A DNA stretch of 64,000 bases from Syntrophales bacterium (GCA_023229765.1 JALNYO010000020.1:1525-65524); one strand, 5' to 3'. Numbered from the stretch's first letter, positions 637 through 58,067 are shown. Made by a program: numbers and translations. The notes: a model not told the origin generated them from the letters alone.

Positions 637-731
637 ACAACGAAGGGTTGACATTTGGCGGGAACTGCTGTCGGGCCTTTTGAAGTAAAAAATGCAAAGA
701 TGCAAGAAGCACATTGTGACGCAGTCATAAC

Positions 732-748: not shown

Positions 749-773
749 CTGCTTAGGGGAGGCCAAGGAGCCC

Positions 774-3166: not shown

Positions 3167-3167
3167 C

Positions 3168-3878: not shown

Positions 3879-3910
3879 GAACCATGCATTTTTTAGAAAC
3901 GGAGTCGTCC

Positions 3911-5437: not shown

Positions 5438-5477
5438 TTCAAAATCTCCAAACGGCGAAGGATAAGCAGGCTTAATA

Positions 5478-16938: not shown

Positions 16939-17030
16939 AATTTGTCAGGTTGACTTTTCAACGGACTGAACGTATTGAAAGAGAAAAAGAAACCTTTAAC
17001 CTGCGAAATATTTTACCACACAACGGGGAC

Positions 17031-18725: not shown

Positions 18726-18745
18726 TATTGGAAGGTAACAAGCTT

Positions 18746-20337: not shown

Positions 20338-20360
20338 GTGATTAAAAGGAGGGCTTGAAC

Positions 20361-21560: not shown

Positions 21561-21632
21561 TAGATGAGTATAATCTATTAATCGCGTCGCGGATGATGAT
21601 TTCGATGCAGGCGAAACGGGGGAAACAGGCAG

Positions 21633-22460: not shown

Positions 22461-22501
22461 AATCGAAGATTAATGTTTATAAATCGAAGATTAATGTTCA
22501 T
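22460..22501 (-). repeat. 21-bp repeat, locus B (2 tandem copies)
   Basis: AAATCGAAGATTAATGTTTAT followed by AAATCGAAGATTAATGTTCAT. The first base is the last base of the livG-like stop codon. Confidence 0.95.
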
Positions 22502-22515
22502 AAAGGGGAAGATTT

Positions 22516-24444
22516 TTGAGCTTCGACAGCAACGAGCAAAATAAAGATTTTCGGGGAACTATCCCGCAGCTCCTGGCTTCACAGGCTGAAAGCATTATTG
22601 GAGACCAGGCCGCCATCAGGGAAAAAGCTTACGGCATCTGGGACGTTTACAGTTGGAAAGCTTACCTTGGCTACGTAAAGAAAATTGGGCTCGGCCTGAT
22701 CGCGATCGGATTTAAACGGGGCGATGTGGTGGGGCTCATCACTGACAATCATTCGGAATGGCTGTTTGCCGAAGTGGGGACACAGGCGGTGGGCGGCATC
22801 AGCTTGAATTTGTTCACATCGGCTGTCTCGGCGGAACTTGCTATTGCCTTGAACCGGGTCAGCGCCGCTTTTGTCTTTGCCGAAAATCAGGAACAGGTTG
22901 ACAAGCTCTTGGAGAGCCGCGATAAACTGAGCCATGTCAAAAATGTTATCTACATTGATCCTACGGGAATGCGCTCCTACGATGACAATCCCTGGATTAT
23001 TTCCTACCGTGATCTGCTTGCGCAAGGCGAAAAACTTGATAACGAGCGCGCGGAGCTTTTCCATGAAGAGCTGAAAAAAGGCAGGGGCGAAGAAACAGCC
23101 CTGATGATTCAGACGTCAGGGACAACAGGCGTGCCCAAGATGGCGATGCTGTCGCACCAGAACATCATCACAATCGGCAAAATGTGGACCACGGCGATAG
23201 ATATAAAACCAGGCGAAAACTGGCTTTCAATGTCGCCGCCGGCATGGATTGTCGATCAGATGTGGGCCTTTGGCGTAGCGCTTTACTCGGGAATGACGAT
23301 GAATTTCCCGGAAATGCCGGAGACAGTGGTGGAGGATTTTCGGGAGATCGGGCCATCCCGCATAATCACGGCATCGCGTTTCTGGGAGGACATGGCGTCG
23401 AAGATTCGCGTCAAGATGGGGGATGCAGGGTTCATCAAGCGCTATCTTTTCAACCAGGCAGAACGAGTGGGACGCTTGATGGAAAACACCCGCATGCAGA
23501 AAAAAACCCCCTCATTCCTTTTGAGTTTCCTTCACAAACTATCCTCCATAATAATTTATCGTCGTCTTCTCGATCGCGTGGGGTGTGCGAACTTTCTTGG
23601 CGCCTACACCGGCGGTCATCCGATCAGCCCGGATGTTATAATCTTTTTCCGTTCCTTCGGTCTTAATTTGAAGCAGTGCTATGGTTTGACCGAGTCCGGG
23701 GGAATCTTTCAGATTCAGCCGGATGACGAAGTGAAACCGGAAACGGTCGGCAAGCCGCTCCCCGGCGTCGAGATAAAAATTGATGAAAATCAGGAGGTGC
23801 TGATTCGCAGCGGTTCCTCCTTTCAAGGATATTATCAGAATGAGCAGGCGACCGCGGCTGCCTTCTTGGATGGCTGGCTGCGGACCGGAGACGCCGGTTA
23901 TCTCGATCAGGATGGTCATCTGTTGATTATCGGTCGTAAGGAAGAGGTTATCCGCAATAAGAGCGGTGAAGCCTTTTCCCCTGATTTCATTGAAACAAGG
24001 CTTAAGTTCAGCCCCTTTATCAAAGAGGCCGTTATCTTCGGCGAGGGGCGACCGTTTTTGACGGCGCTGATCAACATCGATCTCGGCAACACCGGGAGCT
24101 GGGCGGAAAAAAGAATGATCCCCTACACGACTTATATAGATCTTTCTCAGCAGCCGCCCGTGGAAGAGTTGATCCTATCGGAAGTGCGCACCGTCAATCA
24201 GCAATTGCCGGATGTTATGAAAATCAACAAATTCATCCTGCTTTATAAGCTGCTGGATGCCGATGATGAGGAATTGACCAGAACCGGCAAGGTGCGCCGC
24301 CACTTTGTCAGTGAATCGTATAACCTCTTGATAGAGGGCATGTACACAGGCAAAAGCGAGATTCCGATCAAGGGGAAAATACGCTATCGCGATGGGCAGG
24401 TAGGCGAGATAGATACAATCGTGCGGGTTATGACTGCATTATAA
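22516..24444 (+). CDS. AMP-dependent acyl-CoA synthetase/ligase
   Basis: AMP-binding motifs (MIQTSGTTGVPK, TGD, GKVRR). TTG start after an AAAGGGGA RBS. Confidence 0.85.
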   Translation: MSFDSNEQNKDFRGTIPQLLASQAESIIGDQAAIREKAYGIWDVYSWKAYLGYVKKIGLGLIAIGFKRGDVVGLITDNHSEWLFAEVGTQAVGGISLNLFTSAVSAELAIALNRVSAAFVFAENQEQVDKLLESRDKLSHVKNVIYIDPTGMRSYDDNPWIISYRDLLAQGEKLDNERAELFHEELKKGRGEETALMIQTSGTTGVPKMAMLSHQNIITIGKMWTTAIDIKPGENWLSMSPPAWIVDQMWAFGVALYSGMTMNFPEMPETVVEDFREIGPSRIITASRFWEDMASKIRVKMGDAGFIKRYLFNQAERVGRLMENTRMQKKTPSFLLSFLHKLSSIIIYRRLLDRVGCANFLGAYTGGHPISPDVIIFFRSFGLNLKQCYGLTESGGIFQIQPDDEVKPETVGKPLPGVEIKIDENQEVLIRSGSSFQGYYQNEQATAAAFLDGWLRTGDAGYLDQDGHLLIIGRKEEVIRNKSGEAFSPDFIETRLKFSPFIKEAVIFGEGRPFLTALINIDLGNTGSWAEKRMIPYTTYIDLSQQPPVEELILSEVRTVNQQLPDVMKINKFILLYKLLDADDEELTRTGKVRRHFVSESYNLLIEGMYTGKSEIPIKGKIRYRDGQVGEIDTIVRVMTAL

Positions 24445-24467
24445 GAAACAGGCACAGCCGTCCGTTT

Positions 24468-24509
24468 ATGAACATTAATCTTCGATTTATGAACATTAAT
24501 CTTCGATTT
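24468..24509 (+). repeat. 21-bp repeat, locus C (2 tandem copies, inverted relative to locus B)
   Basis: ATGAACATTAATCTTCGATTT occurs twice. The reverse complement of locus B differs at 1 of 42 positions. Confidence 0.95.
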
Positions 24510-24563
24510 GATGGTTTCAAAAAAAACGATTTTTAAGACACTGCAAGGTTAGGGAGGGTTAAG

Positions 24564-25442
24564 GTGGATTTTTTTTTGCAGCTGCTGATCGGAGGTCTTT
24601 CCGTCGGGTTCGTATATGGACTTTCCGCGATGGGTTTTGTAATGATCTTCAAATCGTCAAGCGTTTTGAACTTTGCGCATGGTGAATTGCTCGCACTGGG
24701 CGGTTATTTCTTTCTGATCTTTATCACGGTTGTCAAGCTGCCTGTTATTCTTGCGTTTATCTTTACGCTTGTTGCCTGTTTTATTACCGGAATCCTGATT
24801 GAAAGGGTTTTTCTCAGGCCCTTGATTGGAGAGAAACTGATCTTTGTCATAATGCTGACGGTTGGTCTGGCGGCAATGTTCAAAGGGATAATTCTGCTTA
24901 TCTGGGGGGGTAATCTCTACACATACCCCAATTTTCTTCCGGAATCGATGGGCTTTCGTTTAGGGGTGGTCAGCATCCCGCCTGTTTATGTGGCGACTTT
25001 TGGCATAGGCATCTTCTTTTTGATAATCTTCGGTCTTTTCTTTAAATTTTCCTCACAGGGGATTTACATGCGCTCTGTTGCCGACAACCAGCGGGCCGCC
25101 CTTTCTCTCGGCGTCAATGTAAGACGCGTTTTTGCCCTTTCCTGGGCGATAGCCGCCCTTGTAGCCGGGATGAGCGGCATAGTTCTGGGAATTATCAACG
25201 GCGTCAATGTTCACGATCTGTCCGCTTTGGGTTTAAAGGTGTTTCCGGTAATCATTCTTGGAGGGCTTGACAGCATCGGCGGCGCGATCGTCGGCGGTCT
25301 GATTATTGGTCTTTTGGAGACGTTTACCGGGGGATATATCTCCCCCTCGCTGCGCGATGTTGTGCCTTATATAATCCTGGTGCTTATTCTGCTGATCAAG
25401 CCATACGGTTTGTTCGGGTTAAAAGAAATCGAACGGGTTTAA
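24564..25442 (+). CDS. Branched-chain amino acid-type ABC permease (LivH-like)
   Basis: 292-aa polytopic protein. N-terminus LLIGGLSVGFVYGLSAMGF is typical of LivH. Confidence 0.85.
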   Translation: MDFFLQLLIGGLSVGFVYGLSAMGFVMIFKSSSVLNFAHGELLALGGYFFLIFITVVKLPVILAFIFTLVACFITGILIERVFLRPLIGEKLIFVIMLTVGLAAMFKGIILLIWGGNLYTYPNFLPESMGFRLGVVSIPPVYVATFGIGIFFLIIFGLFFKFSSQGIYMRSVADNQRAALSLGVNVRRVFALSWAIAALVAGMSGIVLGIINGVNVHDLSALGLKVFPVIILGGLDSIGGAIVGGLIIGLLETFTGGYISPSLRDVVPYIILVLILLIKPYGLFGLKEIERV

Positions 25443-25449
25443 AAAAAAG

Positions 25450-26520
25450 ATGAAAAAAATCCAATTACATCCCTGCGGCAACTTCAACGAGTCTTATGAC
25501 CGGGAGCTTACGGTCTTTTCTACCGACTTCGGCAGGATTTGGGCCATAGTCGGCATTATCTTACTTTTATCCGTGCCGCTGATGCCGCTCAGCCCTTATC
25601 TTATTTATGTGATGAATATCACCGGAATAGCGGCAATTTCAGTAATCGGGTTGAATCTGCTGACCGGTTTTACCGGGCAGATATCGCTCGGCCACGGGGC
25701 GTTCTTCGGGGTTGGCGCCTATGCAGGGGCAATTCTGGCGACCAGGCTTAATCTGCCGATATTTATCACTATCCCTGCTGCCGGATTGATCACCGCCGGG
25801 GTAGGCATGATTTTCGGCGTGCCCTCCGGACGACTCAAGGGACTGTATTTGACTATCGCCACCCTGGCCGGTCAGTTTATAATCGAATATGTACTGGTGC
25901 ATTGGGAATATATGACAAAGGGAACGATGGGAATCACGATGCCAATGCCCGTGTTCTTCGGATTCACCATCCAGGGGGATATTCCCTTTTATTATATAAT
26001 TTTCCCGCTGCTCGCTTTGATGCTGTGGATCGCCGTTAATCTGATCCGCACGCGTTTTGGGAGAGCATGGATTGCGATCAGGGATAACGACAGGGCGGCG
26101 GAAGGAATGGGAATTCCCATTTTCCCTTACAAGGTCTTTGCGTTTGCCGTCAGCTCTTTTTATGCCGGTTTTGCCGGCGCCCTTTGGGCGTATTATATGG
26201 GCAGCATCACAACGGAACCATTCAATCTCGCACTTTCGGTGGAGTATCTGGCGATGGTGATCATCGGCGGCTTGGGAAGCATTTCCGGTTCCATTTTTGG
26301 AGCCGTGTTCATTACAGTGCTCAACGAGCTACTGCGTTTTATGACCGATTTCCTGATGAACAGCGCAATCGTCACGCAACTGGGTCTGAGCCTGGCGCCT
26401 CTGCGGGAGTTTTTTTACGGGGTTGCCATCGTTCTCTTTATTCTGTTTGAACCGCGCGGATTAGCGGAGGTGTGGCGGATCGTTCGCTCCAACTTCCGCC
26501 TCTGGCCTTTCCCTTACTGA
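25450..26520 (+). CDS. Branched-chain amino acid-type ABC permease (LivM-like)
   Basis: 356-aa polytopic protein with the GQISLGHGAFFGVGAY motif. Confidence 0.85.
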   Translation: MKKIQLHPCGNFNESYDRELTVFSTDFGRIWAIVGIILLLSVPLMPLSPYLIYVMNITGIAAISVIGLNLLTGFTGQISLGHGAFFGVGAYAGAILATRLNLPIFITIPAAGLITAGVGMIFGVPSGRLKGLYLTIATLAGQFIIEYVLVHWEYMTKGTMGITMPMPVFFGFTIQGDIPFYYIIFPLLALMLWIAVNLIRTRFGRAWIAIRDNDRAAEGMGIPIFPYKVFAFAVSSFYAGFAGALWAYYMGSITTEPFNLALSVEYLAMVIIGGLGSISGSIFGAVFITVLNELLRFMTDFLMNSAIVTQLGLSLAPLREFFYGVAIVLFILFEPRGLAEVWRIVRSNFRLWPFPY

Positions 26521-26530
26521 AGGTTTTTAA

Positions 26531-27331
26531 ATGGCACAAAAATTATTGCAACTCAACAACATTTCGGTTGTTTACTCGGACGTAATTCAGGTTCTTAAGG
26601 GTGTTTCGCTGTCGGTTGAGCAGGGTCAGATTGTCTCCCTGCTGGGAAGCAACGGGGCAGGTAAAACGACAACCCTGAAGGCAATATCGGGACTTCTGAA
26701 GCCGGAAAACGGGATGGTAACGGAGGGGGCGATTCTTTATAAGGAGCGCCCGATGCATAACAAATCTCCGGAAGAAATCACCCGAAACGGCATTATCCAG
26801 GTATTGGAAGGGAGACAACCGTTCAAATATTTAACAATAGAGGAAAATCTCCGGGTGGGAACGGCGACAAGGTCAGGGAAACCCTATCAGGAAGACCTCG
26901 ACAAGGTTTATAATTATTTCCCCGCCTTAAGTACAATGCGCAAAAGACTCGCCGGTTACTGCAGCGGCGGAGAATTGCAGATGCTCGTTATTGGACGGGG
27001 GCTCATGGCCCATCCGGAATTGCTGCTTCTGGACGAGCCCTCCCTTGGTCTGGCGCCGATCCTTGTACGGGAAATCTTCGGCATAATTAAAAGGATAAAC
27101 GAAGACGAGGGAACCACTATCATCCTTGTCGAACAAAACGCCCAGATGGCCCTCCAGATTGCCCATTACGGCTATGTAATGGAAAACGGCAAGATTGTTA
27201 TGGAAGGCTCCGCGGAGGCCGTCCGTGAAAACCCGGATATTAAGGAATTCTATCTGGGAATGTCGGTAACAGGGGATGCCAAATCTTATGACGAGGTAAA
27301 ATCCTACCGGCGTAGAAAAAGATGGCTTTAG
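26531..27331 (+). CDS. ABC transporter ATP-binding protein (LivF-like)
   Basis: Walker A GSNGAGKTT, signature CSGGELQM, Walker B LLLLDEPS. Confidence 0.85.
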   Translation: MAQKLLQLNNISVVYSDVIQVLKGVSLSVEQGQIVSLLGSNGAGKTTTLKAISGLLKPENGMVTEGAILYKERPMHNKSPEEITRNGIIQVLEGRQPFKYLTIEENLRVGTATRSGKPYQEDLDKVYNYFPALSTMRKRLAGYCSGGELQMLVIGRGLMAHPELLLLDEPSLGLAPILVREIFGIIKRINEDEGTTIILVEQNAQMALQIAHYGYVMENGKIVMEGSAEAVRENPDIKEFYLGMSVTGDAKSYDEVKSYRRRKRWL

Positions 27332-35326: not shown

Positions 35327-35350
35327 AAACTGCGCTTGACAGGGCAGTTT
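35327..35350. promoter_or_regulatory. 7-bp inverted repeat (AAACTGC/GCAGTTT) bracketing a TTGACA hexamer upstream of the hdr cluster
   Basis: Read directly from the sequence. No convincing -10 hexamer was found. Confidence 0.2.
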
Positions 35351-35441
35351 AATTATGGTTAAAAATTCAAATTAGGTCTGCCATTTTATCAGATATTTTT
35401 TGCCATGGCGTTTATTAAAAAAATCAACGAGGCTTAGATCA

Positions 35442-38400
35442 GTGCTGAAAGATAACGAAAAAGTAGGCGCGGTAATGGTGGTCGGTTCGGGGATCGCGGG
35501 CATTCAGGCTTCCCTCGATTTAGCGAATTCGGGAATAAAAGTTTACCTGGTGGAAAACGGGATCAGTGTCGGCGGCGTAATGGCGCAGCTCGATAAAACT
35601 TTTCCGACAAATGACTGTTCCGCCTGCATATTGTCGCCCAAGCTGGTGGAAGTAGGCCGCCATCCCAATGTCGATATAATGACGCGGCGCACGGTGGAAA
35701 CAGTCGAGGGCGAACCGGGGCACTTTAAAATAAAAATGACTCGCGCCCCGCGCTTTGTTAATCTCGATAAATGCACCGGTTGCGGTGATTGCGCCAATGT
35801 CTGCCCGGTTTCCGTTTTGTCCGGGTTTAACGGTGATTTAAGTGAACGAAAGGCGATTTACCGCCATTTCCCCCAGGCGATTCCCAGCGCCTTTGCCATT
35901 GACAAGCTTGGAACTTCTCCCTGTAAAGCCGCTTGCCCCGCACATATCAGCGTGCAGGGCTATATAGCTCTCATTGCCGCCGGCAAATACCGCGAAGCGC
36001 TGAAACTCATTAAAAATGATAATCCGTTCCCCTCGGTTTGCGGCCGCGTCTGTAACCATCCCTGTGAAACAGCCTGTAAAAGGGGCGAGGTCGAGCAACC
36101 TGTTGATATTATGCACTTGAAGCGGTTTGTTGCCGATCTGGATTTGAACGATGCCTCCAAATTTATTCCCGAAATAGCGGAAAAGAAAAACAAGAAGGTG
36201 GCGATTGTCGGCGCCGGCCCGGCCGGTCTTACCGCCGCCTATTACCTGGCCATCGAAGGTTATGACATTGAAGTCTTTGAAGCGCTTCCGGTAGCGGGAG
36301 GCTGGCTGGCAGTCGGCATCCCTGAATATCGTCTCCCGAAAAATATCTTCAACGCCGAAATCAGAATCATAGAGGATCTGGGCGTTAAAATAAAATTGAA
36401 TACCCGTGTCGGCATAGATGTCACGCTTGCCGAACTTAAAAATAACCATGATGCCGTATTCATCGGCTGCGGTTCGCATATCAGCTCCAAACTCGACATT
36501 CCCGGCGAGGATTTGGAAGGCGTTATTCACGGCATTGATTACCTGAAGAGGGTTAATCTCGGCGACAAAATATTCCTGGGTAACCGTGTTGCGGTAGTCG
36601 GAGGCGGAAATGTCGCAATGGATGCTGTCCGCACGGCAATTCGCACCGGCTCCAGGGAAGTCTTCATTCTTTACCGCCGGACGAGGGACGAAATGCCCGC
36701 GGCGCCGGATGAAATTGAAGAGGCGCTGGAAGAGGGAATAAGGATGGAATTTCTGGCGGCGCCGGTTAGGATTATCGGCAATAACGGCCGTGTCACCGCC
36801 GTTGAGTGTCTCCGCATGGAATTGGGCGAACCCGATGCCAGCGGAAGACGCCGTCCCGTGCCCATCAAAGGTTCGGAGTTTACCATAGAAGTTGATGCTG
36901 TTGTCCCGGCAATCGGCCAGGCCAACGAACTATCCTTCATCAGCAAGGAGAGCGGCATAACCATTAATAAATGGAATAACATTGACGCGGATGCCGTAAC
37001 CTTCGCAACCAGTGTGCCGGGAATTTTCGCGGGCGGCGACGTTACAACCGGGCCTGCAACGGCTGTCAAAGCTATTAATGCCGGAAAACAGGCGGCGATT
37101 TCCATTAGTCGTTATCTGAATGGCGGGGACCTCGGGGCGGGACGCGCCCATGACTGGACAAAAGGCCTGGCGGATCATGGCGACAACAGCAAGGTCAAAA
37201 AAGTCAAACGCGTTGAGTATCCACTGATGGAGGTCAAGAAAAGGAAATCAAATTTTGATGAGGTAGGCCTTGGTTTCACCGAAGAGCAGGCCAAAGCCGA
37301 AGCGGCGCGGTGTCTTTCCTGCGGCATCTGTTCGGAATGTTATCAATGCGTTGATGCCTGTCTTGCCAAGGCAATCGACCACGATATGATTTTTGAAGAA
37401 GAAACAATTGATGTCGGCGCTGTCATTGCCTCCCCAGGTTTTGAGATTTTTGACGCCCGGCTGCGTGGTGAATACGGCTACGGCATTTATAAAAATGTTG
37501 TCTCCAGCATTCAGTTTGAACGGATTCTTTCCGCTTCCGGCCCTTTCTTCGGGCATGTGCAGAGAATTTCCGACGGCAAAGAGCCCAGGAAGATCGCCTT
37601 CATTCAGTGCGTCGGTTCCCGCGACACCTCCTGCAACAACAGTTGGTGCTCTTCTGTATGTTGCATGTACGCGACGAAGGAAGCGATTATCGGCAAGGAG
37701 CACGCCAATGGGCTGGATGCTACCATTTTCTACATGGATATTCGCGCCCACGGCAAGGATTTTGATCGCTTTGTCAATCGTGCCAAAGAAGAATACGGCA
37801 TCCGTTACATCCGTTCGCTGCCTTCGGTTATTAAAGAATTACAGCAGACGAACAATTTGCTGATCACTTACGTAAAACCCGACGGCACACTGGTGGAAGA
37901 AGAATTTGACATGGTCGTTCTTTCCGTCGGACTCACGCCGCCCAAAGAAGCCAATAAACTCTCCGCCAGTCTTGGCATCGAACTGGAAAAGCACGGTTTC
38001 TGCAAAACCACCATGGAAAACCCGGTGCAGACGTCGCGCCCAGGCGTCTTTGTCTGCGGCGCTTTCGGTGGGCCTAAGGACATTCCCGAGACGGTCATGG
38101 AAGCGAGCGCTGCTGCTGCCTGTGCGGAAGGCCTGCTGGCCGCCAAACGCGGCACGCTGACGATCGCCGAGGAGATGCCCGAGGAAAAGGATTTGCGCGG
38201 CCAGGCAGTCCGCACCGGTGTTTTTGTCTGCCATTGCGGCATCAATATCGGCGGTGTTGTCGATGTTCCATCCGTCAGGGATTATGCGTCAACCCTGCCG
38301 TCGGTTGTTTATGCTGCGGACAATCTCTTCACCTGTTCCCAGGATACGGCGGTCAAGATGGCGGAAGTCATCAAGGAACATAATTTGACGAGGGTAGTCG

Positions 38401-39869
38401 TGGCTTCCTGCTCTCCGCGTACCCATGAAGGCCTGTTTCAGGAGAATTGCGAAAAGGCCGGCCTGAACAGATACCTGTTTGAGATGGCTAACATCCGCGA
38501 TCAGGATTCCTGGGTTCACGTGCATGAACCGGAAGCGGCAACGCAAAAAGCCAAGGATTTGGTCAGAATGTCTGTAGCCAAGGCGCACTATTTAAAACCC
38601 CTGAAGCCCGGTCAGCTTCCCGTCAATCACGCGGCCTTGATTATTGGCGGTGGTCTGGCCGGGATGACGGCAGCACTGACGCTGGCTGATCTGAATTTCC
38701 CGTCCTTCATTGTGGAGAAGGAAGATCAGTTGGGTGGCAATTACCGTCGTTTGTATAAAACTCTCGAAGGGCTCGATACCCGCGACCACCTTAAAAACCT
38801 TTTGGGAAAGGTAGATGATAATCCGTTAATCACCGTCGTTCAAAACGCGCAAATCAAGAAAATTGAAGGCTTTATCGGCAATTACAAAACAACCGTACTG
38901 GCCAGGGATGTTGAAAAAGTTTTTGAACACGGCGTTGTGATTGTCGCGAGTGGAGCCTATGAACATAAACCGCAGGAATATCTCTACGGTCAAAACGCCA
39001 AAATTAAAACACAAAGAGAGCTGGAGAGTCTGATTTGCGAAGAAGCCCCTGAACTTGCCGCTGCTAAAAACATCGTCATGATTCAATGCGTCGGTTCCCG
39101 CGATAAGGAGCGGCCTTACTGCAGCCGATTCTGTTGCAGCGAGGCCATAAAGAATGCACTGATATTGAAGGCTAACGATCCGTCCCGGGACATTACAATA
39201 ATTTACCGTGATATCCGTACATACGGCTTTAAGGAAGATTATTACAAAGAGGCGCGTGAGGCGAATATAAAGTTTATCTCCTATGAAGAGGCGATAAAGC
39301 CGGAAATTGTTGCCGCCGGCGATAAAGTGACGGTAAATATTCTGGATCCTATTCTTGATGAAGCAGTCAGTCTGCCTGCCGATATTGTGGTCTTGAGTGT
39401 CGGCGTTGTGCCCAATCCGGAAAATGTGATGATCGGCAATATGTTGAAAGTGCCGACCAATCAGGACGGGTTTTTCCTCGAGGCGCATGTGAAATTGCGC
39501 CCGGTGGATTTTGCGACCGATGGTGTCTTTATGTGCGGTATGGCGCATTCGCCGAAGTTCAGCGACGAATCCGTTACCCAGGCAAATGCCGCTGTTTCTC
39601 GCGCCTGTATGATTTTGACACAGGATTACATTGAGGCGGAAGGAAAGACGGCTTTTGTCAACAAAGAGCTCTGCTCGGCGTGCGGGCTTTGCGAAATCAA
39701 CTGTCCGTTCGGCGCTATTGCGGTCAACGTCATTGAAGGCTGCGCTGAAGTCAATGCCGTCCTTTGCAAGGGCTGCGGCGTCTGCACGGCATCCTGCCGC
39801 ATGAACGCCGCTGATTTGAACGGCTTTAACAATGAGGAAATACTCTCCCAAATTGGGGCATTTTATTAA
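35442..39869 (+). CDS. Giant HdrA-like flavo-iron-sulfur protein with an inserted GltD/NfnB-like NAD(P)H oxidoreductase module (HdrL-type)
   Basis: HdrA N-terminus (VVGSGIAGIQASLDLA, DKCTGCGDCANVCP). GltD-like insert at ~35910-37124 (CPAH..CGRVCNHPCE; VAIVGAGPAGLTAAYYL; VVGGGNVAMD; FAGGD). HdrA core resumes (FIQCVGSRD, CSSVCCMYA). A second HdrA-like module starts at ~38625 (IIGGGLAGMTAAL, IQCVGSRD, CSRFCCSEA) and ends in two ferredoxin CxxCxxCxxxC motifs. The ORF opens at the TTG at 35400. I prefer the GTG at 35442, which follows a GAGG. Confidence 0.85.
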   Translation: MLKDNEKVGAVMVVGSGIAGIQASLDLANSGIKVYLVENGISVGGVMAQLDKTFPTNDCSACILSPKLVEVGRHPNVDIMTRRTVETVEGEPGHFKIKMTRAPRFVNLDKCTGCGDCANVCPVSVLSGFNGDLSERKAIYRHFPQAIPSAFAIDKLGTSPCKAACPAHISVQGYIALIAAGKYREALKLIKNDNPFPSVCGRVCNHPCETACKRGEVEQPVDIMHLKRFVADLDLNDASKFIPEIAEKKNKKVAIVGAGPAGLTAAYYLAIEGYDIEVFEALPVAGGWLAVGIPEYRLPKNIFNAEIRIIEDLGVKIKLNTRVGIDVTLAELKNNHDAVFIGCGSHISSKLDIPGEDLEGVIHGIDYLKRVNLGDKIFLGNRVAVVGGGNVAMDAVRTAIRTGSREVFILYRRTRDEMPAAPDEIEEALEEGIRMEFLAAPVRIIGNNGRVTAVECLRMELGEPDASGRRRPVPIKGSEFTIEVDAVVPAIGQANELSFISKESGITINKWNNIDADAVTFATSVPGIFAGGDVTTGPATAVKAINAGKQAAISISRYLNGGDLGAGRAHDWTKGLADHGDNSKVKKVKRVEYPLMEVKKRKSNFDEVGLGFTEEQAKAEAARCLSCGICSECYQCVDACLAKAIDHDMIFEEETIDVGAVIASPGFEIFDARLRGEYGYGIYKNVVSSIQFERILSASGPFFGHVQRISDGKEPRKIAFIQCVGSRDTSCNNSWCSSVCCMYATKEAIIGKEHANGLDATIFYMDIRAHGKDFDRFVNRAKEEYGIRYIRSLPSVIKELQQTNNLLITYVKPDGTLVEEEFDMVVLSVGLTPPKEANKLSASLGIELEKHGFCKTTMENPVQTSRPGVFVCGAFGGPKDIPETVMEASAAAACAEGLLAAKRGTLTIAEEMPEEKDLRGQAVRTGVFVCHCGINIGGVVDVPSVRDYASTLPSVVYAADNLFTCSQDTAVKMAEVIKEHNLTRVVVASCSPRTHEGLFQENCEKAGLNRYLFEMANIRDQDSWVHVHEPEAATQKAKDLVRMSVAKAHYLKPLKPGQLPVNHAALIIGGGLAGMTAALTLADLNFPSFIVEKEDQLGGNYRRLYKTLEGLDTRDHLKNLLGKVDDNPLITVVQNAQIKKIEGFIGNYKTTVLARDVEKVFEHGVVIVASGAYEHKPQEYLYGQNAKIKTQRELESLICEEAPELAAAKNIVMIQCVGSRDKERPYCSRFCCSEAIKNALILKANDPSRDITIIYRDIRTYGFKEDYYKEAREANIKFISYEEAIKPEIVAAGDKVTVNILDPILDEAVSLPADIVVLSVGVVPNPENVMIGNMLKVPTNQDGFFLEAHVKLRPVDFATDGVFMCGMAHSPKFSDESVTQANAAVSRACMILTQDYIEAEGKTAFVNKELCSACGLCEINCPFGAIAVNVIEGCAEVNAVLCKGCGVCTASCRMNAADLNGFNNEEILSQIGAFY

Positions 39870-39909
39870 CGATAAGCATCGCGGCAAAAACGCCGTGCAG
39901 GGAGTATAT

Positions 39910-40350
39910 ATGGCTGAAAATTTGGAAAAAGAAAAATGGGAACCCAAAATTGTCGCAATTGTCTGCAACTGGTGCACCTATGCCGGTGCCGATCTGGCGG
40001 GCATCAGCAGAATTCAGTATCCGCCCAATGTGAGAATTATCCGGGTTCCCTGCACCGGCAGGATTAATCCTTTTTATATAGTGAAAGCACTTCAGGAAGG
40101 GGCAGACGGGGTTCTGGTTTCCGGTTGTCATCCCGGCGAGTGCCACTATATATCGGGAAATTTGGTTGCCCGCCGCAAGTTTGCCGCGTTAAAAAGTTTC
40201 CTGAATTACATCGGCATCGAAGGCGACAGGACGATATTTACCTGGGTCTCCGCCTCCGAAGGCGACCGTTTTGCGCAAGTCATCAGGGGTGTGACCGCCA
40301 AGGTCAAGGCCCTCGGACCTGCTGAAAAAATGATCAAGCAAATTGGTTAA
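39910..40350 (+). CDS. MvhD/FlxD-like (methyl-viologen-reducing hydrogenase delta subunit family) protein
   Basis: KIVAIVCNWCTYAGADLAG ... IRVPCTGR ... GADGVLVSGCHPGECHY is the family signature. The ATG at 39910 follows a GCAGGGAG RBS. Confidence 0.85.
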   Translation: MAENLEKEKWEPKIVAIVCNWCTYAGADLAGISRIQYPPNVRIIRVPCTGRINPFYIVKALQEGADGVLVSGCHPGECHYISGNLVARRKFAALKSFLNYIGIEGDRTIFTWVSASEGDRFAQVIRGVTAKVKALGPAEKMIKQIG

Positions 40351-40378
40351 TTGGAAAATAGATTATTGATGGAGCCCA

Positions 40379-41389
40379 ATGGTGGAAAACATCGAAATAA
40401 AATTACGGGACGAAGCAAAAAGGCTGCTTTTGGAAAAAAGTGTTGATGTCATTATCGGCTATGAAACGGGAACATTGCCTTTGACTGCGACCCCATGCTT
40501 TATAAACTCTCCGGAAGAAGCCGAGAAACTGGTCTTCAACGAGCTCTGCACGCAAAATATTGCTAAATATGTCCATGATTTTATCACTAATCACAAGAAT
40601 TCCCAGAAGCGCGTCAAACCGGAAGACCGCAAAAAGAAGGTTATCGGCGTTGTCGCCCGCGGCTGCACAACCAGGTCACTTGTTCTCCATCTCCAGGAGA
40701 GACAGTACGACCGCGATGAAGTGCATATCATCGGCGTCCCCTGCGAAGGGTATCTGGACAGAAAAAAACTGGAGAAAACGTTGCAGGGTGAAGAAATTCT
40801 GGATGGGAATGTTGAAAACGGACAGATTAAAGTCAAGACCGCCGCCGGGGATAAAACTCTTTCCCGGGCCGATCTTCTTGCCGACAACTGCCGCGCCTGC
40901 CGGTTTAATAATCCGATTATTTCCGACATCATTATCGGGTCTCCGGCCCCGGCCATGAACCCGGATAATGAATACGAAAAAATTAATGAATTTGAGAAAA
41001 AATCCCTTGCAGAGCGCTGGGCTCACTTCACAAAGGAAATGGGGAAATGCCTCCGCTGTTACGCCTGCCGTCAGGCCTGTCCTTCCTGTTACTGTCCGAC
41101 GTGCTTTGCCGAACAGAGCCAGCCGCAGTGGGTGGGCATCGGTGATGACGAGAGCGATACGCAGGTATTTCAATGTATGCGCTTATTTCACATGGTCGGC
41201 CGTTGTGTTGATTGCGGCTCCTGTGTTTCCGTTTGCACGACGGGTGTTGACCTGCGCAACTATTTGAAAAAGGAAGAAAAGGATTGTTGGGAACTTTTCG
41301 GCAGCAGGGCGGGCTCTTCGCTGGAAGAGATGCCGCCCTTGGGCAAATACGGCGAGCATGACAAGCAGGATTTTATCTACAACCCATAA
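40379..41389 (+). CDS. Iron-sulfur protein, sulfhydrogenase-beta/AsrA-like (FlxC-like)
   Basis: C-terminal CLRCYACRQACPSCYCPTC ... CVDCGSCVSVC pattern, shared with the 42886 gene. The N-terminal half was not recognised. Confidence 0.55.
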   Translation: MVENIEIKLRDEAKRLLLEKSVDVIIGYETGTLPLTATPCFINSPEEAEKLVFNELCTQNIAKYVHDFITNHKNSQKRVKPEDRKKKVIGVVARGCTTRSLVLHLQERQYDRDEVHIIGVPCEGYLDRKKLEKTLQGEEILDGNVENGQIKVKTAAGDKTLSRADLLADNCRACRFNNPIISDIIIGSPAPAMNPDNEYEKINEFEKKSLAERWAHFTKEMGKCLRCYACRQACPSCYCPTCFAEQSQPQWVGIGDDESDTQVFQCMRLFHMVGRCVDCGSCVSVCTTGVDLRNYLKKEEKDCWELFGSRAGSSLEEMPPLGKYGEHDKQDFIYNP

Positions 41390-41407
41390 TAAGTTCGGGT
41401 AAAAAAG

Positions 41408-41956
41408 GTGAATATGAAAACTTTCCTGAATGAAGTTAATGAGCGGATTGACGGAGTGGTCCTGCAGAGATGCTATCACTGCCGCAGGTGCACTGCCGGC
41501 TGTCCCGTCGCTGCCTACATGGAATATAACCCGAACAAGGTTATAAGGATGATTCAAAACGGCAAACGCGCTGAAGTACTCAACAGCTCGACCATCTGGC
41601 TTTGTCTTTCCTGCGAAACCTGCGTAACCCGCTGTCCCAATGAGGTGGATATAGCGCGGATGATGGATGTTTTAAGGCAGATGGCAATTGAGTCCGGCGT
41701 TGTCGCTCACGAGAAAAACATCCTGAAATTCCACGAGGCCTTCCTTTCCAATATCAAAATGTTGGGCAGAATCAATGAGCCCCTGCTGATGGTGCAGTAT
41801 AAATTAAAATCCGGTGATTTGTTTTCGGACATGCTTCTGGGTGCAGATATGCTTGCCAAAGGCAAATTGTCCCTGTTGTCGCCACGGACTAAGGATTTGA
41901 AATCCGTGAAAGACATCTTTGAAAAAAATCAGGCCCAGGGGGATAAATTTCTTTAG
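41408..41956 (+). CDS. hdrC: Heterodisulfide reductase subunit C-like (2x[4Fe-4S])
   Basis: CYHCRRCTAGCP and CLSCETCVTRCP motifs in a ~180-aa protein. The start is either the GTG at 41408 or the ATG at 41414. Confidence 0.8.
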   Translation: MNMKTFLNEVNERIDGVVLQRCYHCRRCTAGCPVAAYMEYNPNKVIRMIQNGKRAEVLNSSTIWLCLSCETCVTRCPNEVDIARMMDVLRQMAIESGVVAHEKNILKFHEAFLSNIKMLGRINEPLLMVQYKLKSGDLFSDMLLGADMLAKGKLSLLSPRTKDLKSVKDIFEKNQAQGDKFL

Positions 41957-41982
41957 AAACAAAGTGTTGGTAAATAAGGAGG

Positions 41983-42837
41983 TTGGTGTTGAAGGTTTCC
42001 TACTATCCCGGCTGCTCTCTGCATGCGACGGGAAAAGAATATGACCAGTCAATGAGGACTGTCAGCAGCGCACTGGGGATTGAACTCAGGGAAGTTGAAG
42101 ACTGGTCCTGCTGTGGGGCTTCGTCCGCGCACAGCACAAATTTCGACCTCTCCATTGCCCTGTCGGCGCGCAACATGATTATCGCTCAGAGGGACGACAG
42201 GGATGTCATGGTTCCCTGCGCCGCCTGTTTCAATCGTTTCAAAACGGCTGAACATCATCTGAAAACCGACGAGAAACTGAAAACAAGGATTGAAGGCATC
42301 GTCGGCGCCAAATACGAGGGTGGAAACGCAATCCGCAATCCGATAGATATTATTTACAATGAAATCGGTTTGGATACGCTGGCAGCAAAAGTGACTAAAC
42401 AATTGTCCGGGTTAAGGCCGGTTGCCTATTACGGCTGTCTGCTTTTACGGCCCCCGGAGGTCTGTGCCTTCGATAATTACGAAAACCCTCACCTGCTTGG
42501 CGACATATTGGATGCGCTCGGCGCTGATGTACACAACTGGTCCTATAAAACCTGTTGCTGCGGTGGCAGTTTGGCCATCAGTAAAACAAACATTGTTGTA
42601 AACATGGTTGACAGACTGATGCGAGCGGCTCGGGAAGCGGGAGCTAACTGTGTGGTTACCGCCTGTCCTTTGTGCATGAATAATCTCGACATGCGTCCCT
42701 CTCCGGAATTGAAAATGCCTGTATTTTATTTTACCGAACTAATGGCGCTGGCCATGGAATTATCTGGAGCAGAGGAGACTTTCAAATCACACATCTTTGA
42801 TCCGCGGCCATTACTCCGCGGGTTGAAGCTTATTTAA
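41983..42837 (+). CDS. hdrB: Heterodisulfide reductase subunit B-like (two CCG domains)
   Basis: YYPGCS...CCGA...PCAACF and YYGCLL...CCGG...ACPLC motifs. The start is ambiguous among the TTG/GTG/TTG codons at 41983-41989, after an AAGGAGG RBS. Confidence 0.85.
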   Translation: MVLKVSYYPGCSLHATGKEYDQSMRTVSSALGIELREVEDWSCCGASSAHSTNFDLSIALSARNMIIAQRDDRDVMVPCAACFNRFKTAEHHLKTDEKLKTRIEGIVGAKYEGGNAIRNPIDIIYNEIGLDTLAAKVTKQLSGLRPVAYYGCLLLRPPEVCAFDNYENPHLLGDILDALGADVHNWSYKTCCCGGSLAISKTNIVVNMVDRLMRAAREAGANCVVTACPLCMNNLDMRPSPELKMPVFYFTELMALAMELSGAEETFKSHIFDPRPLLRGLKLI

Positions 42838-42885
42838 CGGTGCGGCAGATTTGCTGAAACGAAGGCACATAAGTTAGAGGAAATT

Positions 42886-43908
42886 ATGGAAAAGCGGTTA
42901 ATCAACAAAGATTCGCTTGCAGGTATAGCCAGAAAGATGGCGATGGAATTGACGGTTTGGGTTCCGGTAAGAGAGGAGGATAACGTGCTTTTCGCGCCCC
43001 TGTCTCAAGATACGGAGCCATTTTTCGCCTATCTCAATTCCCGAAACGCGCCCAAGCAGGTATTCTTCCCGCATACGGAAAAGCTGATGAAATACACCCG
43101 CACTCCGAAAGGAATGGTCTTTTCTGAGGAAGAAAGTAAGGCAGATAAAGCGGTCCTTTTCGGCGTTCGTCCCTGTGACGCCCAGAGCTTTGCGCTACTG
43201 GACATGCTTTTTGATCAGGAAAAGTACAGGGATCCATACTATGTCGCCAAAAGAAACAATACCACGGTCATTACTCTGACCTGTGTGCAGCCGCCGTACG
43301 CTACCTGCTTCTGTACCTCTGTGGATGGTGAACCGCTTTCCGGCGGGGGCGCGGATATTCTGCTGACGGAGCTTGACGCAAATTATCTGGCGGAATTCAT
43401 CACGGCCAAAGGAGAAAAACTGCTGAAATATTTCGGCGATCTCAAAACCGATGAAGCTGACGACAGCAGGAAGATGGAGGTCAGCGAAAAGGCAAAGCAG
43501 GCCATCAAATCCAAAATACCGGCTCATGAAATAAAACCGCTTCTGGATAGCAATTTTGAGCATCCCTTCTGGGCGACAATCCACAGCAAGTGCCTCGCCT
43601 GCGGAACCTGCACCTATCTGTGCCCCACCTGCCATTGCTTCGACATCAGCGATGAGGCTACGGGAAGCGACGGGGTGCGGATTCGTTCGTGGGATTCTTG
43701 CATGTTTCCTCTTTTCACGAAAGAAACGTCCGGACACAATCCGCGAACCTCGCAGAAAGAGAGATGGCGCCAGCGCATCATGCACAAATTCAAGTATTAT
43801 GTGGATAATTTTAACGCCATCGCCTGCGTGGGTTGCGGCCGTTGTGTGAGATCCTGTCCCGTTAATCTGGACATCAGAAAAGTCGTGGAAGATATTTCCA
43901 AGTTATAG
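42886..43908 (+). CDS. Iron-sulfur protein, sulfhydrogenase-beta/AsrA-like (FlxB-like)
   Basis: CLACGTCTYLCPTCHCFD ... ACVGCGRCVRSCP in a 340-aa protein. Confidence 0.65.
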   Translation: MEKRLINKDSLAGIARKMAMELTVWVPVREEDNVLFAPLSQDTEPFFAYLNSRNAPKQVFFPHTEKLMKYTRTPKGMVFSEEESKADKAVLFGVRPCDAQSFALLDMLFDQEKYRDPYYVAKRNNTTVITLTCVQPPYATCFCTSVDGEPLSGGGADILLTELDANYLAEFITAKGEKLLKYFGDLKTDEADDSRKMEVSEKAKQAIKSKIPAHEIKPLLDSNFEHPFWATIHSKCLACGTCTYLCPTCHCFDISDEATGSDGVRIRSWDSCMFPLFTKETSGHNPRTSQKERWRQRIMHKFKYYVDNFNAIACVGCGRCVRSCPVNLDIRKVVEDISKL

Positions 43909-43910
43909 TC

Positions 43911-44762
43911 ATGGAGCAAGTAATGCAAAATCCTTATATCCCGTATCCTGTTGAGATCGCCAAAATTATCACGGAAGTGGACACGAAAGACATCAAGACT
44001 TTCCGTTTGAAATTCGTGAATAAGGAAGACGAAGAGGCATTCCAATATATTCCCGGCCAGTTCGGCGAGCTTTCCGTTTACGGCAAAGGGGAATCTCCCA
44101 TAGGGATTGCCTCCTCGCCCACGCAGAAGGGCTATATAGAATTTACCGTGCAGAAAGCGGGAGTCGTTACCAGCGCCCTCCATGAAATGGAAGAAGGAAC
44201 CATGATGGGTGTGCGCGGCCCGATGGGCAATTCCTGGCCGATCGAGTATCTGGAAGGGAAAAACCTGGTGATTGTCGGTGGTGGTTTTGCCTTTACAACT
44301 TTGCGATCCCTGATTAATTACATGATTTATGAAGACAACCGCAAACGTTTCGGTAAAATTACCATTATTTACGGTTCCAGAAATCCTGGTTTGCTGCTTT
44401 ATAAAGACGAACTTGCCGCCTGGGAAAAAAGGGACGACCTGAACGTAAATATCACGGTTGATAAGGGAGATGCGACGTGGAAGGGCAGGGAAGGATTTGT
44501 CCCCACAGTGTGCAAAGAGGTGGCGCCCAGTTCCGAAAACGCAGTGACCGTTATCTGCGGCCCGCCCATCATGATCCGCTTTACGCTGCCGGTCTTTTTC
44601 GATTTGGGATTCTCGAAGGAAAATATCATCACATCGCTGGAAATGCGGATGAAATGTGGTATAGGCAAGTGCGGTCGCTGCAATGTCGGCAATAAGTACG
44701 TCTGCAAAGACGGCCCGGTATTTTCCCTGGCGGAGTTGGACAAACTGACTAAAGAATATTAA
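43911..44762 (+). CDS. FAD/NAD(P)H-binding oxidoreductase with C-terminal [2Fe-2S] (sulfhydrogenase-gamma/AsrB/PyrK-like; FlxA-like)
   Basis: FNR-like fold motifs (PGQF, IGIASSP, LVIVGGGFAF). C-terminal CGIGKCGRCNVG cluster motif. Confidence 0.8.
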   Translation: MEQVMQNPYIPYPVEIAKIITEVDTKDIKTFRLKFVNKEDEEAFQYIPGQFGELSVYGKGESPIGIASSPTQKGYIEFTVQKAGVVTSALHEMEEGTMMGVRGPMGNSWPIEYLEGKNLVIVGGGFAFTTLRSLINYMIYEDNRKRFGKITIIYGSRNPGLLLYKDELAAWEKRDDLNVNITVDKGDATWKGREGFVPTVCKEVAPSSENAVTVICGPPIMIRFTLPVFFDLGFSKENIITSLEMRMKCGIGKCGRCNVGNKYVCKDGPVFSLAELDKLTKEY

Positions 44763-57985: not shown

Positions 57986-58067
57986 ACATTCCTCCTTCAT
58001 AATTTTCTCGTTTTTCACTGCACGCAGCAGTGTAATTTAATCGCCGCTCTCAATGAGACCCAATAGA

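Follow-up and report, generated by a model that had tools for sequence, protein, structure and literature searches.

A stretch of 64 kilobases (kb) from a Syntrophales bacterium (GCA_023229765.1, JALNYO010000020.1:1525-65524), which is called the window below and from whose first letter the cluster coordinates are counted, carries a set of genes for a putative redox complex of the heterodisulfide reductase type (Flx-Hdr). Positions 35442-44762 are filled by seven open reading frames (ORFs) on the plus strand, separated by intergenic gaps of 2-48 nucleotides (nt), in the order hdrL, mvhD/flxD, a gene for an FdhB/ElpB-like protein at the flxC position, hdrC, hdrB, and genes for a HydB/AsrA-like and a HydG/AsrB-like protein. 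Domain calls with Pfam and NCBIfam bear out the seven-gene cluster and the domain content that had been proposed from the sequence (the original prediction), and together with matches to solved structures they indicate that all Flx- and Hdr-type parts are there, with candidates for the two Fe-S subunits FlxB and FlxC.

The first gene, hdrL (35442..39869, +), encodes a protein of 1475 amino acids (aa) that is predicted to comprise an HdrA unit 1 with a nested NfnB-like module, fused to an HdrA unit 2. Its GTG start at 35442 is backed by an identical 1475-aa protein in the database, and this codon is kept, with its GAGGTG ribosome-binding site, in nearly all of 76 related loci. The MvhD/FlxD-like [2Fe-2S] connector (39910..40350, +; 146 aa; PF02662 FlpD, E = 3e-52) most likely starts at 39910, in agreement with a 146-aa gene call in a related locus (L001); an alternative start at 39832 overlaps hdrL. 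It is followed by the gene for an Fe-S protein of the FdhB/ElpB/FrhB family in the FlxC position (gene 3; 40379..41389, +; 336 aa), by hdrC (41408..41956, +), with two CX2CX2CX3C [4Fe-4S] motifs and matches to NCBIfam HdrC models at E = 1e-20 to 5e-21, and by hdrB (41983..42837, +), with two CCG domains (PF02754 twice) and ten cluster cysteines. The last two genes encode a FlxB-like, sulfhydrogenase-beta/AsrA-like Fe-S protein (gene 6; 42886..43908, +; PF17179 Fer4_22, E = 3e-35) and a FlxA-like, sulfhydrogenase-gamma/AsrB-like protein for flavin adenine dinucleotide (FAD), NAD(P)H and a [2Fe-2S] cluster (gene 7; 43911..44762, +; FAD_binding_6, NAD_binding_1, DHODB_Fe-S_bind). The true starts of hdrB and gene 7 are probably TTG at 41989 and ATG at 43923, respectively, which is the likely reason why exact-sequence database look-ups with the HdrB and FlxA-like proteins of the window gave no match.

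The seven-gene cluster is real and its recurrence is beyond chance. A scan with HdrL, using one genome per species, gave 282 stretches, the best 80 of which were used for comparison; all of these 80 contain a full-length HdrL of 72-97% identity, each from another species-level genome, and they are nearly all named as Syntrophus, Smithella, Smithellaceae, Syntrophaceae or Syntrophales, or as generic Deltaproteobacteria. The closest locus, from an 'uncultured Syntrophus sp.' (L002), is 97% identical to the window. Wherever the contig is long enough (53 loci, among them L023 and L041, where one gene fell under the tblastn coverage cut-off and a gene-sized gap stands in its place), the six downstream genes follow hdrL in identical order (53/53); the remaining 27 of the 80 loci stop at a contig edge and are uninformative on order. 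The flanking genes vary between loci, those of the window being common only to L002. The gene order had been described as scrambled, which is misleading because the same order occurs in all 53 informative Syntrophales/Smithellaceae loci; it is fixed across the lineage and equals a published arrangement from Syntrophobacter fumaroxidans with flxBA added. In protein alignments of the window and its orthologues (47-81 sequences), the cofactor cysteines of the cluster are all invariant or nearly so, and the nucleotide-binding motifs of both pyridine-nucleotide modules are conserved to the same degree; Fe-S ligands and motifs hold across 54-81 sequences that are 57-98% identical to the window.

The anatomy of HdrL was derived from comparison with solved structures, and it predicts that two HdrA units, each supplying domains that the other lacks, are fused in one chain together with the nested NfnB-like module. 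The HdrL identity that was proposed originally holds, as does the presence in this HdrA of an NfnB-like NAD(P)H site of its own, but the gene encodes two HdrA units and not one. The first part of unit 1 (35442..35912, +; residues 1-157) contains an FAD-binding GxGxxG motif, C59/C62 and the [4Fe-4S] motif C111-C121. It aligns to 5ODC_A from residue 146 on, C59 and C62 being the equivalents of Cys194 and Cys197 in that structure, and its NDCSAC motif is kept in 78/81 sequences. After the NfnB/GltD-like module (35913..37277, +; residues 158-612; two [4Fe-4S] clusters, FAD and NADPH site), the second part of unit 1 (37278..38138, +; residues 613-899) provides the [4Fe-4S] motif C630-C640 and the rest of the thioredoxin-reductase-like FAD domain; it carries the CVGSRD...CSSVCC cluster and the motif GGPKDIPE, which is present in 78/81 sequences. 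When residues 158-612 are left out, unit 1 (11-157 plus 613-899) gives a contiguous alignment to HdrA of Methanothermococcus thermolithotrophicus (5ODC_A 146-563, E = 2e-119), and the module is inserted exactly between the [4Fe-4S] motifs C111-C121 and C630-C640 of what is known as the inserted ferredoxin domain. Unit 1 is devoid of an N-terminal domain and of a C-terminal ferredoxin domain.

Unit 2 (38178..39869, +; residues 913-1475) has an N-terminal Fe-S domain, an FAD domain and a C-terminal ferredoxin domain for two [4Fe-4S] clusters. It aligns to Methanothermobacter marburgensis HdrA (8RVU_a) over 4-242 and 326-651, skipping 243-325, and has neither the inserted ferredoxin domain nor equivalents of Cys194/197. 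The counterpart of NDCSxC reads LDTRDH and the stretch matching GPKDIP reads HSPKFSDE (residues 1369-1376, window 39546-39569), both being variable among orthologues. Jointly, the two units contain exactly one copy of each accessory HdrA domain. In the light of this comparison, a classical bifurcating flavin site may exist in only one of the two units. HdrL has 49 cysteines in all, and at 44 of these positions at least 99% of the 81 aligned sequences have a cysteine.

The nested module has the two [4Fe-4S] clusters, the FAD and the NADPH site expected of NfnB. It matches 9BOV_A (2e-148), StnC (8OH5_C, 6e-133) and Thermotoga maritima NfnB (4YLF_B, 7e-115), with its parts permuted as in StnC and NfnABC-type proteins: the segment 'RRNFEEV...RCLQC', which is N-terminal in NfnB, is matched at the C-terminal end of the module, by HdrL residues about 598-627. 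The FAD motif is conserved, and the NADPH motif GGGNVAMD...LYRRTRDEMPA has a near-identical counterpart in NfnB of T. maritima and Pyrococcus furiosus; among orthologues GGGNVAMD is invariant and LYRR(T/S)RxEMPA occurs in 81/81 sequences. The HdrL class (Strittmatter 2009) is marked by a large HdrA into which a GltD/NfnB-like region for NAD(P)H binding is inserted, and the context of this class, mvhD and then an FdhB-like gene directly after hdrL, is also found in the window. When residues 1-912 were compared with 1.8 billion cluster representatives, 7226 proteins matched at E <= 1e-30, and the best 150 of these included about 20 proteins of 1400-1530 aa (the fused type), about 11 of 900-1080 aa (stand-alone HdrL) and about 11 with an N-terminal extension. 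From these matches and length classes it follows that the HdrL architecture is widespread. The structure matches to HdrL included no solved structure of a member of this class, and no measured activity was found in the literature on it.

The remaining subunits retain their cofactor ligands. The MvhD protein has five invariant cysteines, in keeping with the MvhD-like [2Fe-2S] protein that FlxD is. For gene 3, Pfam and NCBIfam gave two [4Fe-4S] motifs and a weak FrhB_FdhB_C match; sequence matches were to FdhB of Fdh-Hdr (7BKB_E, 1e-16), 9T1S_M and ElpB (8RVU_E). The AlphaFold2 (AF2) model of this protein, with a mean predicted local distance difference test score (pLDDT) of 69 and values of 74-96 for most of the N-terminal domain (residues 1-170), resembles 7BKB_E (E = 2e-14, template modelling score TM 0.58) and 8RVU_E, and then FrhB, HCAR and Fsr. 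Its 16 invariant cysteines are sufficient for up to four [4Fe-4S] clusters, as in FdhB/ElpB. A homologue search with gene 3 listed close orthologues only (at least 64% identity) and could not reach D. vulgaris FlxC. HdrC has eight cysteines that are invariant in 61 sequences. In HdrB, C11, 43, 44, 79, 82, 152, 192, 193, 228 and 231 are invariant in 56 sequences (the window and 55 orthologues), and full-length alignment to the solved methanogen HdrB proteins 8RVV_B and 5ODC_B brings the CCG cysteines into register, so that the CCG motifs are not degenerate. An HdrABC set is complete in the sense that an FAD-binding HdrA (here the fused double unit with its extra module), a dicluster HdrC and a two-CCG HdrB are all encoded.

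The product of gene 6, with 15 invariant cysteines, matches ShyB, HydB and AsrA models (E = 1e-51 to 5e-42) and the beta subunit of P. furiosus sulfhydrogenase I (9NEZ_B, E = 1e-42), and that of gene 7 matches the gamma subunit of the same enzyme over its full length (9NEZ_C, E = 4e-57). Gene 7 is also related to NfnA (4YLF_A, 2e-15; 5JCA_S, 3e-13) and PyrK, but is far closer to HydG. Like FlxA, its product combines an FNR-fold FAD/NAD(P)H part with a C-terminal PyrK-type [2Fe-2S] motif (PF00970, PF00175, PF10418); GESPIGIASSP is invariant, and VGGGFAFTTLRS and CGIGKCGRCNVG occur in 50/54 and 53/54 sequences, respectively. The two Fe-S proteins at the FlxB and FlxC places, HydB/AsrA-like for gene 6 and FdhB-like for gene 3, are distant full-length paralogues with 22% identity, which agrees with the earlier description of two AsrA-like Fe-S proteins. 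An AsrABC sulfite reductase was considered for genes 6 and 7 and ruled out: no AsrC-like gene follows them, and the scores lie under the family cut-offs (AsrA, 144 versus 323 bits for gene 6; AsrB, 197 versus 289 bits for gene 7).

As originally proposed, the neighbourhood has no hydrogenase: a length-based greedy gene call over the 64 kb, which gave 48 ORFs of at least 90 aa and left out shorter ones, revealed neither a hydrogenase nor a formate dehydrogenase catalytic subunit. A DsrC-like gene was also absent from these 48 ORFs, shorter ones being outside the survey, and no catalytic donor subunit of methanogen-type Hdr (MvhA, FdhA/molybdopterin) is encoded in the cluster or among the rest of these ORFs.

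Several known systems resemble parts of this cluster. FlxABCD-HdrABC of Desulfovibrio vulgaris Hildenborough likewise consists of an FNR-like FAD/NAD(P)H/[2Fe-2S] subunit, two Fe-S subunits, an MvhD-like protein, HdrA, HdrB and HdrC, and there is no hydrogenase there either. It is said to have been described in 2015 by Ramos and co-workers as D. vulgaris DVU2399-2404, with the order hdrCBA-flxDCBA, and the role they reportedly proposed is NADH-driven bifurcation to ferredoxin and a disulfide (DsrC). This canonical order is not the one of the window, which has hdrL-flxD-flxC-hdrC-hdrB-flxB-flxA; the window further differs in that its HdrA consists of two fused units and an NfnB-like NADPH module, in that it comes from a syntrophic lineage, and in that no DsrC gene is linked. 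In the literature on syntrophs, the Smithella genome paper names its cluster 'Hdr/Flox' (PMC5606693), and Nobu et al. refer to Flox-Hdr as an 'uncharacterized syntroph-associated redox complex' (PMC7382037).

HdrL itself was defined in Desulfobacterium autotrophicum, where HdrA is fused to a glutamate-synthase-like part; mvhD comes next, often together with an FdhB-like gene (PMC2702500). In S. fumaroxidans, Sfum_0819-0824 encode HdrABC together with HdrL, MvhD and an Fe-S protein, and it is only with sulfate that these products are abundant (PMC5947623); Dred_1325-30 of Desulfotomaculum reducens is similar, and its authors argue that HdrL substitutes for the missing FlxA (PMC4759654). The clusters of these three organisms share with the window the large HdrA/GltD-like HdrL, MvhD, the FdhB-like Fe-S protein and HdrABC, are likewise without a hydrogenase or formate dehydrogenase catalytic subunit, and have been proposed to be NAD(P)H-linked bifurcating or confurcating systems. 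The order in the window is that of Sfum_0824-0819, HdrL-MvhD-FdhB-like-HdrCB(A), with flxBA appended (PMC5947623). Whereas HdrA is a separate gene and FlxA is missing in those clusters, in the window HdrA is fused to HdrL and FlxB- and FlxA-like genes are added, which makes two pyridine-nucleotide modules coexist. HdrL1 and HdrL3, two of the three HdrL proteins of D. autotrophicum, contain selenocysteine, whereas the HdrL of the window has cysteine.

The internal architecture of HdrL has parallels in anaerobic methanotrophic archaea (ANME). In ANME-1, HdrA9-11 have an NfnB-like insertion of roughly 500 aa in the inserted ferredoxin domain, and fused or tandem HdrA proteins of ANME have a complementary N-terminal domain and Cys197, each acting as its own heterodimer; two bifurcation sites with NADPH as carrier have been suggested (Chadwick et al. 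2022, PMC9012536). The same division of the N-terminal domain and Cys197 between units is found in the HdrL of the window. The ANME proteins are archaeal, belong to a coenzyme M/coenzyme B (CoM/CoB) context and have other partner genes (FdhAB), and in their fusions the unit with the N-terminal domain comes first, whereas it comes second in the window. Furthermore, unlike in ANME, a single polypeptide of the window has both the NfnB insertion and the HdrA fusion, and a Flx module is added to it.

Compared with the Mvh-, Fdh- and Elp-HdrABC complexes of methanogens (5ODC, 7BKB, 8RVU), the window encodes homologues of HdrA, HdrB, HdrC, MvhD and FdhB/ElpB with conserved ligands, but the donors H2, formate or F420H2 are replaced by a predicted NAD(P)H module, the symmetric HdrA dimer by an asymmetric fused pair, and the exit to ferredoxin or polyferredoxin is taken by the NfnB-like module. 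It is unlikely that CoM-S-S-CoB is the substrate of the HdrB encoded here. With NfnAB, StnABC and NfnABC-type enzymes (4YLF, 5JCA, 8OH5, 9BOV, 9N5U) the module shares the [4Fe-4S], FAD and NADPH motifs and the StnC-like permuted order, and as in these systems the operon also codes for an FNR-like [2Fe-2S] flavoprotein related to NfnA. Unlike NfnAB, the cluster has no free-standing NfnB, its NfnA relative is of the HydG type with a HydB-type partner, and the whole lies inside an HdrABC system. The cluster is a variant of the known Flx-Hdr and HdrL systems and no new kind of system, although the union of a fused HdrL-HdrA, MvhD, an FdhB-like protein and HdrCB with a HydBG/FlxBA arm, giving two pyridine-nucleotide modules within one strictly kept operon, in non-sulfate-reducing syntrophs appears not to have been described before. 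Its novelty is below that implied by the original prediction, because 'Hdr/Flox' had been named in Smithella (PMC5606693) and NfnB-inserted or fused HdrA in ANME (PMC9012536).

Regarding function, we consider it somewhat probable (roughly 55%) that a single operon of seven genes encodes a soluble, multi-flavin complex of the Flx-Hdr/HdrL type without a hydrogenase, which would couple NAD(P)H to HdrBC by bifurcation or confurcation, with, as the best reading, the NfnB-like module replacing or supplementing ferredoxin. Gene content, synteny, conservation of cofactor ligands, nesting of domains and homology to solved modules were observed directly, and from this basis we infer that one complex is formed, the direction of electron flow, the specificity for NADH or NADPH, and the substrate of HdrB. 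In solved Elp- and Fdh-Hdr complexes, the flavin of FdhB/ElpB passes electrons through the clusters of that subunit into those at the HdrA N-terminus, from which they go to the MvhD [2Fe-2S] cluster and on to the FAD at which the partner HdrA bifurcates them; low-potential electrons exit to ferredoxin-like acceptors by the inserted ferredoxin domain, and HdrC-HdrB form the high-potential branch (PMC12350162).

By homology to the solved Mvh-, Fdh- and Elp-Hdr and sulfhydrogenase structures, NAD(P)H would reduce the FAD of the HydG/FlxA-like subunit and then its [2Fe-2S] cluster, from where electrons would move through the [4Fe-4S] chain of the HydB/FlxB-like subunit to the FdhB/ElpB-like subunit in the FlxC position, from there to the N-terminal Fe-S domain of unit 2 and the MvhD [2Fe-2S] cluster, and finally to the bifurcating FAD of the fused HdrA pseudo-heterodimer. 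This FAD is probably that of unit 1, because unit 1 has the canonical GPKDIP site and the Cys197 equivalent. The high-potential electron would go via HdrC to the two non-cubane clusters of HdrB and reduce a disulfide, either of a DsrC/TusE-like protein or of a small thiol. The low-potential electron would leave through the single inserted ferredoxin domain to the two [4Fe-4S] clusters and the FAD of the NfnB-like module, which could reduce NADP+ and/or pass electrons to ferredoxin; in reverse, electrons of NADPH would be injected here for confurcation. The original prediction assumed two pyridine-nucleotide entry points. Two intact modules with invariant motifs are indeed present, but the NfnB-like module is placed inside the low-potential exit domain, and therefore the second site may be an exit (for NADP+ reduction) and not a second entry. 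Most likely this site reduces NADP+ or, with the flow reversed, feeds NADPH electrons for confurcation, and it may also hand electrons to ferredoxin. The transhydrogenase-like or confurcating function that had been put forward is plausible on such reasoning.

The scheme is favoured by several observations. One unit is indicated because the gaps are 2-48 nt and the order is identical in the 53 informative genomes despite differing flanks. Genes 6 and 7 are relatives of the beta/gamma pair that oxidises NAD(P)H in P. furiosus sulfhydrogenase I, and gene 3 matches FdhB/ElpB both by sequence and by predicted fold, these being the subunits that join the donor to the N-terminal clusters of HdrA and to MvhD in solved complexes (PMC12350162). 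In S. fumaroxidans and D. reducens, the products of comparable HdrL clusters are abundant when the cells reduce sulfate (PMC5947623, PMC4759654). Other observations weigh against it. The NAD(P)H site of HdrL was proposed to be an input, not an output, in S. fumaroxidans (PMC5947623) and D. reducens (PMC4759654), and HdrB-like domains serve as pure electron-transfer modules in EMO of Syntrophus aciditrophicus. The FAD site of FdhB/ElpB may or may not be retained in the FdhB-like protein of gene 3. A linked gene for a thiol/disulfide carrier was absent from the ORFs called in the window, in line with what had been noted originally for the vicinity, and none recurs in the relatives; to our knowledge, the host lineage is not known for sulfate reduction. 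All named carriers of the cluster are metagenome-assembled genomes with generic annotation. Finally, consensus promoter and terminator scans of 35.1-45.1 kb gave calls at chance level, the candidate promoter of hdrL not being called, and a possible hairpin lies between hdrB and flxB.

This hairpin of 13 base pairs is GC-rich (42795..42838, +; a CCGCGG...CCGCGG pair followed by the U-rich UUAUUUAA) and overlaps the 3' end of hdrB; it is statistically insignificant (z = -1.44) and possibly acts as a weak internal attenuator, partial terminator or processing site. It also bears on the idea that two adjacent enzymes are encoded, namely an HdrL-MvhD-FdhB-like-HdrCB complex of the S. fumaroxidans type and a separate HydBG/AsrAB-like NAD(P)H:acceptor oxidoreductase. 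The hdrB-flxB spacer, which has the hairpin in the window, is the longest and most variable one (22-338 nt among relatives), and HdrL clusters devoid of FlxA do exist, as Sfum_0819-0824 (PMC5947623) and Dred_1325-30 (PMC4759654) illustrate. Nevertheless, such a separation is very improbable in our view: order and adjacency were held in 53/53 genomes despite shuffled flanks, flxB follows hdrB directly on the same strand and is only 2 nt away from flxA, and HydBG/AsrAB-type pairs are not known to act without a catalytic partner (AsrC or a hydrogenase), none of which is encoded here.

A different possibility is that both modules are inputs, with NADPH entering via the NfnB-like module and NADH via FlxA to feed the same HdrA flavin, and with free ferredoxin as low-potential and the HdrB disulfide as high-potential acceptor, as in classical Flx-Hdr (2 NAD(P)H + Fd_ox + RSSR -> Fd_red + 2 RSH, with Fd for ferredoxin, RSSR for disulfide and RSH for thiol). 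The GltD/NfnB-like part of HdrL has been proposed as an NAD(P)H dehydrogenase that replaces FlxA in D. autotrophicum (PMC2702500), S. fumaroxidans (PMC5947623) and D. reducens (PMC4759654), GltD-type modules are plain NADPH inputs in glutamate synthase, as judged from matches in the Protein Data Bank (PDB), and Smithella is reported to be without Rnf and in need of a source of reduced ferredoxin (PMC5606693). Yet the only inserted ferredoxin domain, which is the docking site of ferredoxin-like acceptors in solved complexes, is taken by the NfnB-like module, leaving no other obvious exit for ferredoxin, and two inputs of similar potential bring no clear gain that would explain their strict co-conservation, which makes dual input possible but rather unlikely. 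If, conversely, the complex had no need for free ferredoxin, it could be a disulfide-coupled NADH:NADP+ transhydrogenase with the NfnB-like module hard-wired on the low-potential exit (2 NADH + NADP+ + RSSR -> 2 NAD+ + NADPH + 2 RSH), or in reverse a confurcating enzyme in which NADPH would lift electrons of a high-potential thiol pool to NADH; we give this specific version only a small chance of being right. It is also conceivable that the NfnB-like module and the NfnA-related FlxA form an extended Nfn that connects a low-potential carrier with NADPH and NAD+, in which case HdrBC would reduce no disulfide and be only a wire or docking site to, e.g., a membrane or ETF-linked system. Homology of gene 7 to NfnA (4YLF_A, 2e-15; 5JCA_S, 3e-13), the closeness of the NfnB-like module to bifurcating StnC and NfnABC-type subunits (8OH5_C, 9BOV_A, 9N5U_A), the use of HdrBC-like domains for electron transfer in S. 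aciditrophicus EMO, and the presence next to the cluster of canonical nfnAB in about 19-22 related loci and of an HdrD-like gene in 15 are consistent with this. It is distinctly improbable all the same, since gene 7 is much nearer to HydG (4e-57) and stands beside a HydB-like gene, which is the pairing of sulfhydrogenase, since HdrB has all ten ligands of a catalytic HdrB whereas the EMO proteins have lost ligands, and since genomes with adjoining canonical NfnAB have no need of a second Nfn.

Around the cluster, the genes differ between organisms. The canonical nfnA and nfnB genes of relatives lie directly 3' of it and are missing in the window; they encode proteins of 278 aa (DHODB_Fe-S_bind) and 474 aa (Fer4_20/Pyr_redox_2), the latter with the normal, non-permuted NfnB order (examples are L067:19377-20213 plus the next gene, and L001/L061:19565-21740), and their adjacency hints at a functional tie to NADH/NADPH/ferredoxin balancing. 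The soluble HdrD-like protein is encoded directly after the cluster in Smithella-type loci (e.g. L023:18982-20157), measures 391 aa with two [4Fe-4S] motifs and two CCG domains, and could be a second thiol/disulfide or electron-transfer module. On the 5' side of hdrL in relatives, a gene for an EngB/YihA GTPase recurs in 51 loci, one for a sigma-54-dependent response regulator in 35 and one for a PAS sensor kinase in 29; examples of such genes are L045:7553-8938, L011:5017-7587 and L016:9034-9633. Sigma-54 control of hdrL, as suggested by the kinase/regulator pair upstream in about 30-37 relatives, was rejected: TGGCAC-N5-TTGC with at most 2 mismatches was found 5' of hdrL neither in the window nor in 73 of 76 loci. 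A similar kinase/regulator pair of the window (16950-20122) is 15 kb away, beside a Liv-type ABC transporter and an AMP-binding ligase (20355-27331). A candidate sigma-70-type promoter (35336..35365, +; TTGACA, about 18 nt, TAAAAA), for which the evidence is weak, lies 106 nt 5' of hdrL in the window, and a TTGACA hexamer about 100-130 nt 5' of hdrL is present in 13 other related loci.

The flanks of the cluster in the window are housekeeping genes, with recG, purM/purN, pfk and recJ on the 5' side and genes for homoserine dehydrogenase, ApgM, a TPR protein, DnaJ and DnaE on the 3' side. A horizontal-transfer island was ruled out on the basis of these flanks and of the guanine-plus-cytosine (GC) content, which is 0.48-0.52 in the cluster and 0.475-0.52 in the neighbouring part of the window (28-50 kb). 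Elsewhere in the window, the first 6 kb have a GC content of 0.58-0.63 versus about 0.48-0.52 in the rest and may be of different origin; positions 49-9390 carry a MacAB/TolC-like efflux set (HlyD, FtsX/MacB_PCD, OEP), a transglutaminase-like protein and an ABC_tran_2 ATPase. An ORF of 656 aa at 10651-12621 (+) is a FeoA-FeoB fusion (FeoA, FeoB_N, Gate, FeoB_C), with an NlpC/P60-LysM peptidase just 5' of it on the opposite strand, and at 56120-59995 (-) a three-gene set encodes two adjoining proteins with DUF5666 repeats (632 and 354 aa) and then a DUF6502 protein of 298 aa.

Syntrophus, Smithella and their relatives run the energetically most marginal steps in the methanogenic breakdown of fatty acids, aromatics and alkanes, and it is a long-standing question how syntrophs, some of which are reported to be without Rnf, obtain low-potential reductant or drive electrons uphill. 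The operon, found in 80 species-level genomes, is among the most strictly conserved redox modules of this lineage, while its proteins usually carry labels such as 'FAD-dependent oxidoreductase' or 'Hdr/Flox, uncharacterised'. It will hold little surprise for those who study anaerobic bioenergetics, yet it is a well-defined, lineage-wide module, and its anatomy leads to a concrete wiring diagram in which a single asymmetric path would connect a HydBG-type NAD(P)H donor arm to an NfnB-like module at the ferredoxin exit. The complex would be a favourable object for cryo-electron microscopy of the gating between Hdr branches, because its HdrA dimer is fused and asymmetric. If the ferredoxin-free version were true and ran in the confurcating direction, syntrophs would have a soluble system for reverse electron transport, in which one polypeptide has two flavins in series that are both competent for bifurcation. 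More generally, the cluster offers a candidate role for NADPH and bears on the way in which syntrophs may balance their pools of NADH, NADPH, ferredoxin and thiols.

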